Part shown: positions 19,462 through 23,782 of the stretch, in pieces | How positions within the stretch are numbered: position 1 is the stretch's first letter | Layout of the letters: every line of letters starts with the position of its first letter | Source of the DNA: Candidatus Bathyarchaeota archaeon | Lineage (GTDB): Archaea; Thermoproteota; Bathyarchaeia; Bathyarchaeales; Bathycorpusculaceae | Direction of reading: 5' to 3' | Assembly: GCA_963815095.1 (NCBI GenBank) | Contig: CAWFFH010000003.1 | Coordinates: 768,001 to 832,000 of the forward strand | Length of the DNA stretch: 64,000 bases | The notes under the pieces: model-generated | Told to the model about the DNA's origin: nothing | Seen by the model: only the letters and a program-made list of their open reading frames with translations | Database searches by the model: none | Made by a program: the position numbers and the translations under genes

Positions 19462-20883
19462 GTGTCTCGGATGGAAAAAATAGGTGTCCTAGTCGTTTCT
19501 TATGGAGCACGAGAAGTCGCCATAGCCGATACTCTTCTAAGGAGCAAAAAATACCAAGTAAAACTCTACGTCGCCGACAAACAATTTAACCCCTTCAACG
19601 CAGAAAAAGCCACAAAACACAAAGTCATCCCAAACCTCGACATAGAAGAAATCTGCAAGTTCGCCGAAGCAAACAAAGAAAAACTTGACTTTGTCATGGT
19701 TGGCTCCGAAAAACCTATAATTGAAGGCATCCGTGACTTAATCGAGAAAAAAACAGGTATACCTGTGATTTGTCCCACCAAAGAATATGCTATAGAGGAA
19801 AGCAAAGTCGCTCAAAGGGTACTTTTTGAGGAGATTGCACCCGAAGCGAATCCACGATTCAAAGTTTTCCACCCAGCCGATTACAAGGGCAAAGATGTTC
19901 AGAAGTCTGTATATCAATGGTTAGATGAATTGAATAACCAAGCCGTCGTCAAACCCGACAAGCCTGCTTTGGGTAAAGGTGTTGGTGTCTGGGGTGACCA
20001 CTTCGCGAATCGTGAGCAGCTTTTTGAGCATTTCATGTCCAATTTCAAGTACGGTTCAGTCATTATCGAAGAAAAAATCGATGGCGAAGAATCCAGCTGC
20101 ATGGGCTTCTGTGATGGCAAACACTTCATTCCCCTGCCCGACACGCGTGACTACAAACGTGCCTTTGACAATGACGTAGGTCCAAACACTGGTGGCATGG
20201 GCTCCTACAAAGATGTTGCCGATTGGTTGCCATTCTTAACTTCAGCTGAACGTGAAAAGGAGCGCGCGTTAGCAAACAAGGTTTTCAAAGGCTGGAAAAC
20301 CAAAATAAGCGATGATACCGCCCTTCGAGGTGTTCCATTGTATCTTGCCTTTATGCATACTGGAAAAGGCATCAAAATCCTCGAAATCAACAGTCGCCCT
20401 GGCGATCCCGAAATTATGAACCTTCTGCCAATCATCAAAGACGACTTCGTTGATGTCTGCCTAAAAATGATTAGTGGTAACTTGACGGGTGTTGCACTTG
20501 AAAAGTCTGCGACGGTTTTAACTTACAAAGTTCCAGCAGACTACGGCGGTTATGCAGAAACCTTTCCTGCCAAAATCGACAAATCTGCAATTACCTCGCC
20601 CGTTGACCTAACTAAAGCCCAAGCATTAACCAAGAAGTACGGCGACAAAATCCGCATCTACCCCGGCTCCATGGAGCTGCGAGAAGGCAAAAACTACGCC
20701 CTCAAATCCCGAGCAATTGGTATCCTTGGCATTGGCAGCAGCATCGAGGAAGCGCGCAAAATTAGTCAAGAAGGCGCCAAAGTCATTACTGGCGGTGCAC
20801 TCTGGAACCGCACCGACGTAGCCTCAAAACAGCATATAGCCAAAAGCGTTGAGCACATGGATAGGTTGAGGCACAAGGCTTGA
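19462..20883 (+). CDS. purD: Phosphoribosylamine-glycine ligase
   Basis: GAREVAI, GKGV, DYKRAFDNDVGPNTGGMGS, EINSRPGDPE. Confidence 0.93.
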   Translation: MSRMEKIGVLVVSYGAREVAIADTLLRSKKYQVKLYVADKQFNPFNAEKATKHKVIPNLDIEEICKFAEANKEKLDFVMVGSEKPIIEGIRDLIEKKTGIPVICPTKEYAIEESKVAQRVLFEEIAPEANPRFKVFHPADYKGKDVQKSVYQWLDELNNQAVVKPDKPALGKGVGVWGDHFANREQLFEHFMSNFKYGSVIIEEKIDGEESSCMGFCDGKHFIPLPDTRDYKRAFDNDVGPNTGGMGSYKDVADWLPFLTSAEREKERALANKVFKGWKTKISDDTALRGVPLYLAFMHTGKGIKILEINSRPGDPEIMNLLPIIKDDFVDVCLKMISGNLTGVALEKSATVLTYKVPADYGGYAETFPAKIDKSAITSPVDLTKAQALTKKYGDKIRIYPGSMELREGKNYALKSRAIGILGIGSSIEEARKISQEGAKVITGGALWNRTDVASKQHIAKSVEHMDRLRHKA

Positions 20884-21962
20884 CGCGCGTTTTTATATCT
20901 GACTGTGAAGGACCCATATCCAAAAACGACAACGCTTTCGAACTGGCAGAGAACTTTATTCCAAACGGTGACAAATTTTTCACAAACATAAGCTTGTACG
21001 ATGATGTTCTAGCAGATAGCTTTCACAAACCTGGTTACAATGCGGGTAGCACACTCAAGTTGATTTTACCCTTCTTCAAAGCTTATGGCATAACCGATGG
21101 TCAAATGGAAGATTTCTCCGCTAGAAACATTGTTTTAATCGCTAACACCAAAACCACCCTCCACCACATACAATCACTAACCGACGCCTTCATAGTCAGT
21201 ACCAGCTATGAACACTACATCAAAGCCCTCTGCAAAGCAGTCAATTTCCCATACAAAAACACATACTGCACAAAAGTTGCTCTCGACAAATCTCCAATCA
21301 CTCCTCAAGAAAAAGAGCGCCTAAGAAAGATAGCCCAAGAAATCGCGCAAATGCCGCCAATTGAAATTCCGTCAAACGCAAAAAACCTCATGGATTTTTC
21401 GATCAGCGACCAAACCCTTATCCAGCGCTTGGACGAGATTTTCTGGAGTCTAATTCCTAAAACGTTTGTCGGCAAATTTCTCACAGAAATAGTAACAGTT
21501 GGTGGGGAACAAAAAGCCGAAGCCATACGTGATGCCGCAAAACGTTCAGGTGTAGCGCTGGAGGATGTTCTGTATGTAGGTGACAGCATCACCGACGTAG
21601 AAGCTTTCAAACTCGTTCGCGATAACGGGGGTTTAACGGTATCTTTCAACGGAAACCGTTATGCAGTGAAGAATGCTGAGGTAGCTATACAGTCGGAAAG
21701 TAACCTTGTCACGGCTGTGGTAGCTGACTTATTCATCAAGTTAGGCAAAAAACAAACTCTCAACGCTCTCGGGTCATGGAACTTCGAAGCCCTCAATAAA
21801 AGCAAAGTTGATGAGGCTTTACTCCAACAACTCTTCGTCATTTCCCCTGACTGTTTGCCCAAGGTTCAAATAGTTACAGCAGAAAATATGGAATCACTCA
21901 TAAAAGAGAGCAGCGCGTTTAGGAAGAAGGTTCGGGGAGTAGCTATCGGGAGACTTGGATAA
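20880..21962 (+). CDS. HAD-superfamily phosphatase-like protein (COG4030 / EhaR-like)
   Basis: Motif I variant DCEGP, STSY, K...YVGDSITD, SFNGN; TTGA overlap with the purD stop. Confidence 0.75.
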   Translation: MTRVFISDCEGPISKNDNAFELAENFIPNGDKFFTNISLYDDVLADSFHKPGYNAGSTLKLILPFFKAYGITDGQMEDFSARNIVLIANTKTTLHHIQSLTDAFIVSTSYEHYIKALCKAVNFPYKNTYCTKVALDKSPITPQEKERLRKIAQEIAQMPPIEIPSNAKNLMDFSISDQTLIQRLDEIFWSLIPKTFVGKFLTEIVTVGGEQKAEAIRDAAKRSGVALEDVLYVGDSITDVEAFKLVRDNGGLTVSFNGNRYAVKNAEVAIQSESNLVTAVVADLFIKLGKKQTLNALGSWNFEALNKSKVDEALLQQLFVISPDCLPKVQIVTAENMESLIKESSAFRKKVRGVAIGRLG

Positions 21963-22871
21963 ATGGGTAAAGCGCAAATTGAAGACACTTACGCTGAAGT
22001 GTTTACTGGAATTTATTGTCGGGTAATCGTTACTGCAGACGATGAGCAAATCCTGCGTAAGGCAGCTGAGGACTCCACCGCAACACCGTCCGTTGTAATT
22101 GGCAGAACCGAGGGCGGCGTAGAAAAATACCTAACTCCAAACGAAACCCCCGACAAACGTGTAGGTGCCATATTACAGTTCTGGGGCGAAATCAACCCCA
22201 AAAAAACATTTGCCGAATCGCTAAAAAAATTCGAAACTGAACTTTCTTACCGCATTCGTCAAGATATTCTTGTCAAACCCTTTACAGCAGTCTTCGATGC
22301 AATGCCACGAGGTGAGGGCAAGTTGGATATGATGGAGAGCGTGGGTCACTGCGGCGATGGATATGAATGGGTCGAAAAGCGATATGGCAGAGAAGTCATC
22401 GTTGTTCCTCTGATGGTGCCGGACTTCATTATTGAACGTTATCTTGGTTACGCAAAGGGCGTTATGGGCGGCAACTTCTGGGTAATGTGCACTTCAAAGC
22501 AAGCACTCGTGGAATCAGGCGCCAAAGCGCTCAAGGCAATTCACAAAGTTTACGGAGTCGTAACCACCTTTGACATTTGCTCAGCCGGCAGCAAACCAGA
22601 AACCCATTTCCCAAAGATTGGGCCAACCACCAATCACCTGTACTGTCCATCGCTTAAATCGCGCTTAGGCAAGGAATCCAAGGTTCCCCAAGGCGTGGGA
22701 TACATAGCCGAAATCGTCTATGACGGCATTTCCTTAGACGCCATCAAAGAAGCCACCAAAGCAGGAATCAAAGCTGTATTAGACGTCGATGGCGTCACCC
22801 GGATTTCCGCAGGCAACTACGGCGGCAAAATAGGAGAACACAAAATCCAATTAAAGGAGTTATTTCCATGA
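21963..22871 (+). CDS. Divergent formylmethanofuran:H4MPT formyltransferase paralog (Ftr-II / EhaS-like)
   Basis: [36 protein letters not shown]; several canonical Ftr segments altered. Confidence 0.85.
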
Positions 22872-23782
22872 CAAAATTTGATGTTTTAGGTTTCGGAGCA
22901 CTCAACGTTGACATGCTCTTCAAAGTAGAAAAATTTGCAACCGCTGAAAAAGAAAGCTTCATCACAGATTACACGGAAGCCTGCGGCGGCTCAGCAGCAA
23001 ACACGATTGTAGGGCTATCTAGGCTTGGCTGCAAAGTTGGGTTCATAGGAAAAATTGCAGGCGACCGAGAAGGCAAACTGCAACTCGAATGCTTCAAAGC
23101 CGAAGGCGTGGACACTAGCGGAATTATTGAGATGAAAAATGGCAGAAGCGGTTCAGTGATGGGTTTCGTGGACAGAACGGGCGCAAGAACCCTCTACATT
23201 AACTCAGGCGTCAACGACTTAATCGAGCCAAGAGAAATCAAATACGAATACATTTCTCAAACCAAGCTCATCCATCTGTCATCTTTTGTCGGTGAAAAAT
23301 CGTTCCGTGCACAAAAAAAACTGTTAAGCTCCCTACCTGAAGGCGTCGAAATCAGCTTCGATCCGGGTTCAGTGTATGCTCAGAAGGGTTTCGGAGTCAT
23401 AGAACCCATAATAAAGAACTCTCACGTCATAATGCCCAACGCAGCTGAACTTGAACTGTTAACAGGTGAAGAAGATTTCCGTAAGGGCGCCGATTTCATG
23501 ATTGGGATGGGTGTTAAGATTGTGGCGGTGAAGCTTGGCAACAAAGGCTGCTATGTTACCGATGGCCAAGAACATCTCAACGTGGAACCATTCAAAGTTA
23601 AAGCGCTCGATACCACAGGTGCAGGAGATGCTTTCAACGCGGGTTTTCTCTACGGTTTAATACATGAAAAAAGCCTCTATGAATGCGGTCAGCTGGGCAA
23701 TTTTGTTGGCTCCCGAAATGTGTTGGCGATGGGTGCACGCTCAGGATTGCCCTATGCTAAAGACTTAGCATTTCTTCGATAG
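22868..23782 (+). CDS. PfkB/ribokinase family sugar or nucleoside kinase (EhaT-like)
   Basis: [23 protein letters not shown] overlap with the ftr-like gene. Confidence 0.9.

Follow-up and report, generated by a model that had tools for sequence, protein, structure and literature searches.

PurN and PurT are the transformylases of step 3 of de novo purine synthesis, the formylation of glycinamide ribonucleotide (GAR) to formylglycinamide ribonucleotide (FGAR). In Archaeoglobi, Methanobacteriales, Methanopyrus, and ANME-1, the lack of a recognised GAR transformylase has been a known gap since at least 2011. Passages of Brown 2011 (PMC3261824) report that purN and purT were not found in two Archaeoglobi, four 'Methanomicrobiales' (Methanothermobacter, Methanosphaera, and two Methanobrevibacter), and Methanopyrus. 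Passages of Chadwick 2022 (PMC9012536) describe ANME-1 as having neither PurN nor PurT, state that an unidentified enzyme must exist, and also describe a divergent clade of the formyltransferase Ftr, termed Ftr2, in ANME-1, ANME-2a, 2b, Archaeoglobales, M. kandleri, and M. marburgensis; in those passages the clade and the gap are not connected. Finally, a passage of Kaster 2011 reports that an Ftr-like protein, EhaS, and a ribokinase-like protein, EhaT, are co-transcribed with the eha hydrogenase genes in Methanothermobacter. Here we compare these systems with a locus in a 64,000-nucleotide stretch of DNA (the window; positions 768,001 to 832,000 of contig CAWFFH010000003.1) from Candidatus Bathyarchaeota archaeon, in which purD, the gene for GAR synthetase, is followed by three genes encoding an EhaR-family HAD-like protein, an Ftr paralog (Ftr2), and a PfkB-family kinase.

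An EhaR and PfkB pair is tied to purD and, with one of three formyltransferase families, is found instead of PurN/PurT. From this pattern we predict that the module of three genes after purD probably converts GAR to FGAR without PurN or PurT. An earlier reading of the locus (the original prediction) had pointed to both an ehaR/S/T parallel and a PurN/PurT gap in archaeal lineages. All elements of it that could be checked have held. The parallel and the gap are both real: JGI annotates relatives of the HAD protein as EhaR, EhaS and EhaT are as reported in the passage of Kaster 2011, and the gap is in print in the passages of Brown 2011 and Chadwick 2022. Among open full texts (subscription journals and supplements lie outside this scope), we found no paper that assigns Ftr2 or EhaR/S/T to GAR formylation.

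The purD operon and the missing transformylase

The open reading frames (ORFs) of the window were read from a list of ORFs and their translations, and domains were assigned by Pfam and NCBIfam scans (Table 1). Read directly, the genes for PurD and EhaR share 'ttga' at 20880-20883, the 'taa' of the EhaR gene abuts the 'atg' of the Ftr2 gene at 21960-21965, and the genes for Ftr2 and the kinase share 'atga' at 22868-22871. These junctions are exactly as first claimed, and the four genes form a translationally coupled operon. The whole block, purF-purD-EhaR-Ftr2-PfkB, converges on purQ-purL-purS-purM and lies beside the cdh operon. The two convergent pur operons of the original prediction thus match the Pfam and NCBIfam gene calls, and the neighbouring cdh operon is confirmed as well.

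Neither PurN nor PurT is encoded in the window, as had been noted, and the same is true of the host genome, a Bathyarchaeia metagenome-assembled genome (MAG) of 2.69 Mb in 9 contigs that is 98.45% complete. A profile search of all 9 contigs gave no match to PurN (PF00551 and TIGR00639); the PurN profile controls match in 12 of 14 named genomes. The best PurT match (TIGR01142) scores 52 bits, against a cut-off of 502, and lies in a 1129-aa open frame that, judged by size, is taken to be carbamoyl-phosphate synthase. A separate canonical ftr was also sought and is present, 200 kb from the window copy, making two Ftr genes in all; its product, Ftr1, matches three solved archaeal Ftr structures at 302-303 bits and the bacterial FhcD at 240 bits. 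Two tandem PurP (DUF1297) genes (G000:C3:1419900-1421539) are found, and PurH was not found in the genome; this makes it probable that the pathway's second formylation depends on formate and ATP and not on folate. Tandem PurP pairs recur among relatives, both those that use EhaR and those that use a PurT-like gene; the purD-less genomes G021 and G153 carry them as well.

Distribution of the module

The gene order is well conserved. Among the best 80 species-representative loci, nearly all of which carry Bathyarchaeota or Bathyarchaeia titles (a few are titled uncultured archaeon, Nitrososphaerota, Thorarchaeota, or Nanoarchaeia), purD adjoins EhaR in 79, EhaR adjoins Ftr2 in 79, and Ftr2 adjoins PfkB in 76, counts that come from close kin and are not independent. 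At 15 loci from the class, purD lies by EhaR in 13 and Ftr2 by EhaR in 11; nine have the kinase after Ftr2, and two more are truncated by a contig end. The order is broken in G085, where Ftr2 and PfkB lie together 17 kb from purD-EhaR. The purD-EhaR-Ftr2-PfkB arrangement is not due to chance.

In a sample of 151 genomes from the phylum, a strong EhaR match is present in 17 of the 20 class members and in none of the other 131 genomes, four of which have weak local HAD matches only. The three class members without EhaR are G021, which lacks purD, and G002 and G117, which carry a PurT-like gene. A sample of 61 genomes from the class was searched for EhaR, Ftr, PurD, PurT, PF00551, PurP, and the kinase. 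PurD is present in 44, and all 21 genomes with EhaR lie within those 44. Nine of the 23 purD genomes without EhaR have a full-length divergent PurT-like gene (225-302 bits, the 'PurT-like' threshold, like that for 'kinase orthologue', having been set after the score distributions were viewed), and 12 have a PF00551 gene. These genes adjoin purD in G154 and G160 (PurT-like) and in G177, G179, G189, and G194 (PF00551). The only EhaR genome with a PurT-family match is G151 (175 bits, 383 aa). GTDB family f6 holds both solutions, EhaR with Ftr2 in two genomes and a PurT-like gene in seven, so the pattern is not one deep split. The anticorrelation with PurN/PurT and the clustering with pur genes that were put forward for the trio have therefore held across this sample of the class.

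PurD itself may co-evolve with the module. It scores 222-270 bits on TIGR00877 (cut-off 288) in 20 of the 21 EhaR genomes and mostly 300-433 bits in genomes without EhaR; G172, which has EhaR, departs from this at 397 bits, and G157, in which none was found, at 244 bits. The PurT-like genes of EhaR-less Bathyarchaeia (G002:C2:205939-207159, G154:C11:4484-5695, G160:C53:3493-4809, and six more) score far below the PurT cut-off of 502, and a divergent clade of this kind would escape automatic annotation.

It is also on these patterns that one must judge whether the module has anything to do with purines, since its proteins could instead be accessory subunits of Eha hydrogenase, or Ftr2 a second Wood-Ljungdahl Ftr isoenzyme with unrelated neighbours. 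Such a function would fit the cdh operon beside the locus, the score of Ftr2 above the cut-off of an NCBIfam Ftr subfamily, and the co-transcription of the Methanothermobacter homologues with ehaA-R reported in the passage of Kaster 2011. It does not fit a trio that has purD on one side and purQLSM on the other, with codons shared at the junctions, in a genome whose canonical Ftr1 is encoded separately. Nor does it fit the distribution of EhaR, which is found in none of the 17 purD-less genomes of the class sample and which has a homologue in Archaeoglobus, a genus not known to have Eha. We regard it as extremely improbable. For this genome, the hydrogenase-subunit assignment is rejected: the EhaR gene has purD and Ftr2 as neighbours and is not in an eha operon, the genome has three large-subunit genes of the group-4 hydrogenase/Nuo type, all of them on different contigs or over 400 kb from the window, and McrA was not found in it. 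One of the three Complex1_49kDa-family genes (G000:C6:24522-25250) contains a TGA inside its match, which could be a selenocysteine codon, a sequencing error, or a break.

The EhaR-family protein

The HAD-like protein has a weak match to Hydrolase_3 (30 bits, Pfam cut-off 20.9). Its best 120 homologues are 72-100% identical to it, and many have been named EhaR by JGI ('energy-converting hydrogenase A subunit R'). The family is well populated: at E<=1e-3 it has 625 cluster representatives, and at the stricter E<=1e-30 it has 207. Its profile matches PDB 1Y8A (A. fulgidus AF1437) at 243 bits over nearly the full length, and this structure, titled 'hypothetical protein', is the only one solved for a member of the family.

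The conserved motifs of EhaR, D8-x-E10-G-P, S107, K212, and GDSITD at 234-239, contain the motif I Asp, the motif II Ser, the motif III Lys, and the motif IV acidic pair of HAD enzymes. D8, S107, K212, D235, and D239 are invariant among 14 closer family members, and in a wider set of 43, D239 is invariant while S107 and K212 reach a conservation of at least 90%. EhaR is thus a predicted phosphatase or phosphotransferase that would act on the product of PurD. Its extreme C-terminus, ...R-G-x-x-[IV]-G-x-L-G-stop, is kept in most full-length members, fusions included (P0121-P0270), which suggests that this tail has a functional role.

Beyond the class, our statements rest on passages of two papers, the source names of proteins, and one PDB title. 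The archaeal source names of EhaR homologues are Archaeoglobaceae, Methanopyrus, Candidatus Methanospirareceae (an ANME-1 family), ANME-2, and Methanosarcinales; Archaeoglobaceae, Methanopyrus, and the ANME-1 family overlap with the lineages reported to have no PurN/PurT. Bacterial names also appear (P0145 cluster, P0339, P0400, P0403, P0405), namely Ammonifex degensii, Ammonifex thiophilus, Nitrospirae, and Chloroflexota, together with MAGs of Deltaproteobacteria, Thermodesulfobacteriota, and Dissulfuribacterales.

Ftr2 and the PfkB kinase

Ftr2 carries both lobes of Ftr at full length (PF01913, 148 bits, 5-142 of 142; PF02741, 179 bits, 1-149 of 149). It passes the NF002554 subfamily (332.5 bits, cut-off 297) and falls below the TIGR03119 equivalog (231.6 bits, cut-off 292.6). 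Its scores against the solved Ftr structures (154-176 bits) and FhcD (99 bits) are well under those of Ftr1, with which it shares 35% identity within the genome. In a tree of 40 sequences, grouped by genomic position only (by EhaR/purD or elsewhere) and containing no methanogen sequences, the Ftr1 and Ftr2 groups are split with 100/100 support by an internal branch some 1.1 substitutions per site in length, which bears out the suggestion that the paralog forms a distinct clade. Residue E250 of Ftr2 aligns with the 'EIV' Glu of 1FTR, 1M5H, 1M5S, and 6S6Y, and is invariant in 21 of 21 Ftr2 sequences. In the M. kandleri Ftr, the matching oxyanion Glu is presumably Glu245. For FhcD, the oxyanion-stabilising Glu is given as Glu252 in a passage of PMC6926001. 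Taken together, these features make Ftr2 the predicted formyl-transfer enzyme of step 3.

Four genomes, G172 (C1:100117-104497, L116), G175, G155, and G151, have Ftr2 in the purD-EhaR cluster and no detected canonical Ftr1, at a completeness of 96% for G172 and 87-98% for the others. If this absence is real, Ftr2 would be their only Ftr.

The PfkB domain of the kinase is near full length (6-295 of 304 aa), and its translation shows the GG and GAGD motifs as 'CGGSAAN' and 'TGAGDAF'. It scores 161 bits on the ribokinase equivalog TIGR02152 (cut-off 299.65) and passes no equivalog; its nearest curated families are ribokinase and ribose-1-phosphate kinases, and among solved structures it comes closest to fructokinase and ribokinases (85-118 bits). 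In the 61-genome sample, matches at E<=1e-44 occur in 20 genomes, all of them with EhaR, and none of the nine PurT-like genomes has a match at E<=1e-25. Within the module, the kinase is the predicted restorer of the 5'-phosphate.

An interchangeable formyltransferase partner

The formyltransferase that accompanies EhaR is Ftr2 in the majority of lineages, but not in all. Four genomes with EhaR (G037, G069, G174, and G169) have a canonical-type Ftr only, together with a weak PF00551 match (42-66 bits) that we call PurN*. The gene order in G174 and G169 is purF-purD-PurN*-EhaR-PfkB; in G069, purD-PurN* lies 12 kb from EhaR and the kinase on one contig, and in G037 they are on separate contigs. 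PurN* shares 46-52% identity with the N-terminal half of P0191, a natural fusion of 599 residues that joins a PurN-like domain to EhaR. Other fusions, P0206 and P0216, join an ATP-grasp protein to EhaR, and their sole formyltransferase-related NCBIfam matches are to PurT, weak and local. PurN* keeps the N-x-H and D catalytic motifs, and the SGxGSN loop of canonical PurN is changed to S(T/S)GRDxAA. That loop presumably holds the phosphate of GAR, although we found no open text to confirm this, and its change would be a hint of a non-phosphorylated acceptor.

Scanning metagenomes with the distant DWEGPW subgroup of EhaR as the seed gave 80 loci. In 35 of these, a formyltransferase-like gene is fused or adjacent to EhaR: nine are of the ATP-grasp type, eight are Ftr2, and 18 are PurN*. 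Six of the eight Ftr2-type loci lie beside purD and purF, and in 16 of the 18 PurN*-type loci a kinase follows. Six loci have purF-purD-EhaR with a convergent kinase. Of all 80, 19 have purD no more than 1.2 kb away and 23 have PfkB as a neighbour. The neighbours of the ATP-grasp/EhaR fusions and of stand-alone EhaR are uninformative and include tRNA synthetase, RFC, FmdE, and similar genes.

The recurring core is therefore EhaR plus the PfkB kinase, and the formyltransferase is of Ftr-type, PurN-type, or PurT-like ATP-grasp type. This extends the original prediction, which had been framed around the trio with the Ftr paralog. The type of partner tracks the one-carbon (C1) system: each of the 17 Ftr2-type genomes has PurP, and none of the four of the PurN* type does.

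A possible route through glycinamide riboside

Since the acceptor is all that the three formyltransferase types have in common, EhaR and the kinase most likely work on it or on the product. Placed around a formyl transfer, a HAD phosphatase and a kinase of the ribokinase family point to a detour through the riboside, as in the original prediction. First, EhaR would strip the 5'-phosphate from GAR; second, the formyltransferase would formylate the resulting glycinamide riboside; and third, the PfkB kinase would re-phosphorylate the product to FGAR. EhaR and the kinase would thus be obligatory partners that handle the acceptor. Because PurL, PurQ, and PurS are canonical, the product of the module must end as FGAR. 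Ftr2 would take its formyl group from formyl-methanofuran or N5-formyl-tetrahydromethanopterin (N5-formyl-H4MPT), donors suggested by the family to which it belongs and by the lack of folate-type purine enzymes in the genome. By spending one ATP, as PurT does, the module would turn a near-isoenergetic transfer of the formyl group from a low-potential formamide donor into an irreversible one. The substrate, the donor, the order of the reactions, and the hydrolase activity of EhaR are all predictions of this scheme, and we advance the phosphatase, formyl-transfer, and kinase detour tentatively, as the mechanism that we favour.

The same gene set would also permit a simpler chemistry, in which Ftr2 or PurN* formylates intact GAR, EhaR serves as a non-hydrolytic adaptor, a substrate-presenting subunit, or a regulator, and the kinase is peripheral, providing, for example, ribose 5-phosphate for phosphoribosyl pyrophosphate (PRPP). 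This competes with the detour only as a mechanism and leaves the step-3 assignment in place. Fusions of EhaR to a formyltransferase fit a subunit as well as they fit a consecutive enzyme, and the kinase is closest to the ribokinase and ribose-1-phosphate kinase families. Likewise, some distant members of the EhaR family have no Asp nucleophile, and eight EhaR-Ftr2 loci of the metagenome scan have no adjacent kinase. On the other hand, a mere adaptor would not account for the invariance of the HAD Asp, Ser, Lys, and Asp (motifs I-IV) in closer EhaR members, nor a peripheral kinase for its occurrence together with EhaR in operons of the Ftr2 type and of the PurN* type alike and its absence, at E<=1e-25, from the nine PurT-like genomes, and the loss of the SGxGSN loop in PurN* also speaks against an intact GAR acceptor. 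Direct formylation is, on this evidence, unlikely.

A further possibility is that the module is related to purines but not to step 3, acting in salvage or recycling of early intermediates that are dephosphorylated or damaged, or in ribose phosphate supply, while GAR is formylated by an unrecognised formate-dependent enzyme such as a PurP paralog or another ATP-grasp protein. A phosphatase and a kinase are a typical salvage pair, and the two tandem PurP genes show that formate-dependent formylation exists; unexplained purP duplications are noted in a passage of Brown 2011 (PMC3261824). The second PurP, however, does not track the gap: only one PurP is seen in at least seven of the 17 genomes of the Ftr2 type, and two are present in the PurT-like G002 and G160 as well as in the purD-less pair named above. 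The PurP paralog is weakened accordingly as a candidate GAR formylator. Salvage would also leave unexplained why three formyltransferase families are fused or adjacent to EhaR, and why the module and PurN/PurT-like genes exclude one another. We consider such a role quite improbable.

Several points weigh against the assignment of the module to step 3 or, in particular, against the detour. Support for the step-3 role is wholly comparative. Since the compared genomes are kin, the counts, which are uncorrected for phylogeny, overstate their independence. G181 and G190 have purD but no EhaR, PurT-like, or PF00551 gene, and G157 has a divergent PurD with no EhaR found, its purD being followed by ScpB and then a tubulin/FtsZ-like gene. 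In the metagenome scan, 31 of the 80 loci are without any tested neighbour, and the nine ATP-grasp fusion loci have no pur genes or kinase nearby; the eight EhaR-Ftr2 loci mentioned above bear especially on the detour. The detour is also without an evident rationale where the partner is PurT-like and driven by ATP, or PurN-like with a high-potential donor. Motif I of EhaR reads D-C-E-G-P, with Glu rather than the Asp of DxD at +2, and the few distant members without the nucleophile Asp count here too. Glu10 is nevertheless invariant in the 14-member set, the enolase-phosphatase E1 is active with a DxE motif I, and a match to the MtnX structure 2FEA covers the motif I region of EhaR. The presence of PurP implies that free formate is presumably available, so an unrecognised formate-dependent enzyme is conceivable. 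Finally, ANME-2a and 2b are described in passages of Chadwick 2022 (PMC9012536) as having both Ftr2 and PurN, which means that exclusion of the two is not strict, and according to a passage of Brown 2011 (PMC3261824), which does not discuss N5-formyl-H4MPT or formyl-methanofuran, N10-formyl-H4MPT is not considered to function as a donor of formyl groups.

Other features of the window

The coordinates of the module and its neighbours are collected in Table 1. The purF gene was called mechanically at a TTG at 18089; the true N-terminus, CGIFG (Cys codon at 17945), lies 48 codons earlier. The frame has a TGA stop at 17933, is open from 17936, and reads I-G-C-G-I-F-G. The N-terminus and these limits leave an ATA at 17939 as the sole possible start, and purF probably begins at this non-canonical codon. 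ATA-GGC-TGC is conserved at this position in the loci of six relatives (L021, L034, L035, L036, L041, and L062), and L019 has ATG-GGC-TGC.

Table 1. Features of the purine locus and its surroundings, in window coordinates
Feature	Position	Strand	Evidence
cdh operon (carbon monoxide dehydrogenase (CODH)/acetyl-CoA synthase subunits), context	10286..17291	+	Prismane/CODH, CO_dh, CdhC, two CdhD-family proteins
purF (amidophosphoribosyltransferase), probable start	17939..19423	+	TIGR01134 287 bits on TTG-called ORF, from profile position 60
purD (GAR synthetase), divergent type	19462..20883	+	GARS_A/N/C; TIGR00877 239 bits, below cut-off 288
EhaR-family HAD-like protein, 360 aa, TTG start	20880..21962	+	weak HAD matches, EhaR homologues
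Ftr2, Ftr paralog, 302 aa	21963..22871	+	FTR and FTR_C
PfkB-family (ribokinase-like) kinase, 304 aa	22868..23782	+	PF00294 173 bits
purQ	23765..24583	-	NF002252 317 bits, above cut-off 298
purL	24580..26967	-	TIGR01736 684 bits, above cut-off 526
purS	26964..27215	-	TIGR00302 67 bits, above cut-off 39
purM, split in two ORFs	27272..28355	-	TIGR00878 176 bits on N-terminal part

The two ORFs of purM (27627-28355 and 27272-27637) are split by a frameshift from one extra base near 27688. The gene is in a single frame in L019, and contigs of two public DNA runs are without one base at 27688. Because the two runs and the relatives show it intact, the split is probably an assembly indel rather than the mark of a pseudogene. 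Just past purM, a gene at 28559-29401 (+) encodes a protein of 280 residues with a CAP12/Pycsar-type TIR effector domain (82 bits), and may be related to defence. Further on, at 30167-31552 (+), lies the gene for a B12-binding radical SAM protein of 461 residues.

Significance

The module is the best candidate yet for a step of archaeal purine synthesis whose enzyme has long been missing in several groups. If the assignment is right, the locus provides a concrete three-gene candidate for a GAR transformylase, within which the EhaR and kinase core recurs with three unrelated formyltransferase types. A function would follow for the AF1437 structure and for the EhaR/S/T 'hydrogenase subunits', formyl-methanofuran or formyl-H4MPT would be linked directly to biosynthesis, and annotations and the gap-filling of metabolic models could be corrected for methanogens, ANME, and Bathyarchaeia. 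Should the detour also hold, ATP hydrolysis would be a ratchet for formyl transfer from low-potential donors, and C1 units of the Wood-Ljungdahl or methanogenic pathways would go straight into C8 of the purine ring. We think it conceivable, with some reserve, that such a nucleoside-level step 3 operates in Bathyarchaeia, Archaeoglobi, Methanobacteriales, Methanopyrus, ANME-1, and some bacteria. Eha is regarded as an anaplerotic hydrogenase, and the link of EhaR/S/T to the eha operon could then lie in the replacement of formyl-methanofuran withdrawn for purines.

Comparison with known systems

The closest described set is EhaR, EhaS, and EhaT of Methanothermobacter, where the same three families occur together. 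There, the genes stand at the end of the eha operon, whereas those of the window are inside a pur cluster and away from any hydrogenase operon; the published view takes EhaR/S/T as hydrogenase subunits of undefined role. AF1437 belongs to the same family as the window EhaR and shares its C-terminal ...RG..G.LG, but it is of the DWEGPW subgroup, whereas the window protein has DCEGP, and the title of 1Y8A assigns no function.

Like Ftr and FhcD, Ftr2 keeps both lobes, the EIV Glu, and the core motifs ETPDxRxG, GSK, TNHxYCP, and GGKLG. It differs from them in an insertion of about nine residues, a deletion of two, and its location in a pur operon, and two loops are changed relative to Ftr (FGDGfq to hCGdGyEw, and PFPGGxCR to F--diCsa). 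The kinase has the fold and the motifs of adenosine kinase and of a Salmonella aminoimidazole riboside kinase, which we take to be the protein of PDB 1TYY/1TZ3 (1tyy match, E=1e-12). These riboside kinases of the PfkB family are not closely related to the window kinase, but they offer a precedent for phosphorylation of the 5'-OH of a purine-pathway riboside.

Finally, the module resembles PurN and PurT in the step predicted for it, GAR to FGAR, and in the slot after purD that PurN- and PurT-like genes occupy in EhaR-less Bathyarchaeia, and the net ATP cost of the proposed detour would equal that of PurT. It differs from both in the unrelated fold of Ftr, in a predicted donor that would be formyl-methanofuran or formyl-H4MPT, and in the additional HAD and PfkB proteins.

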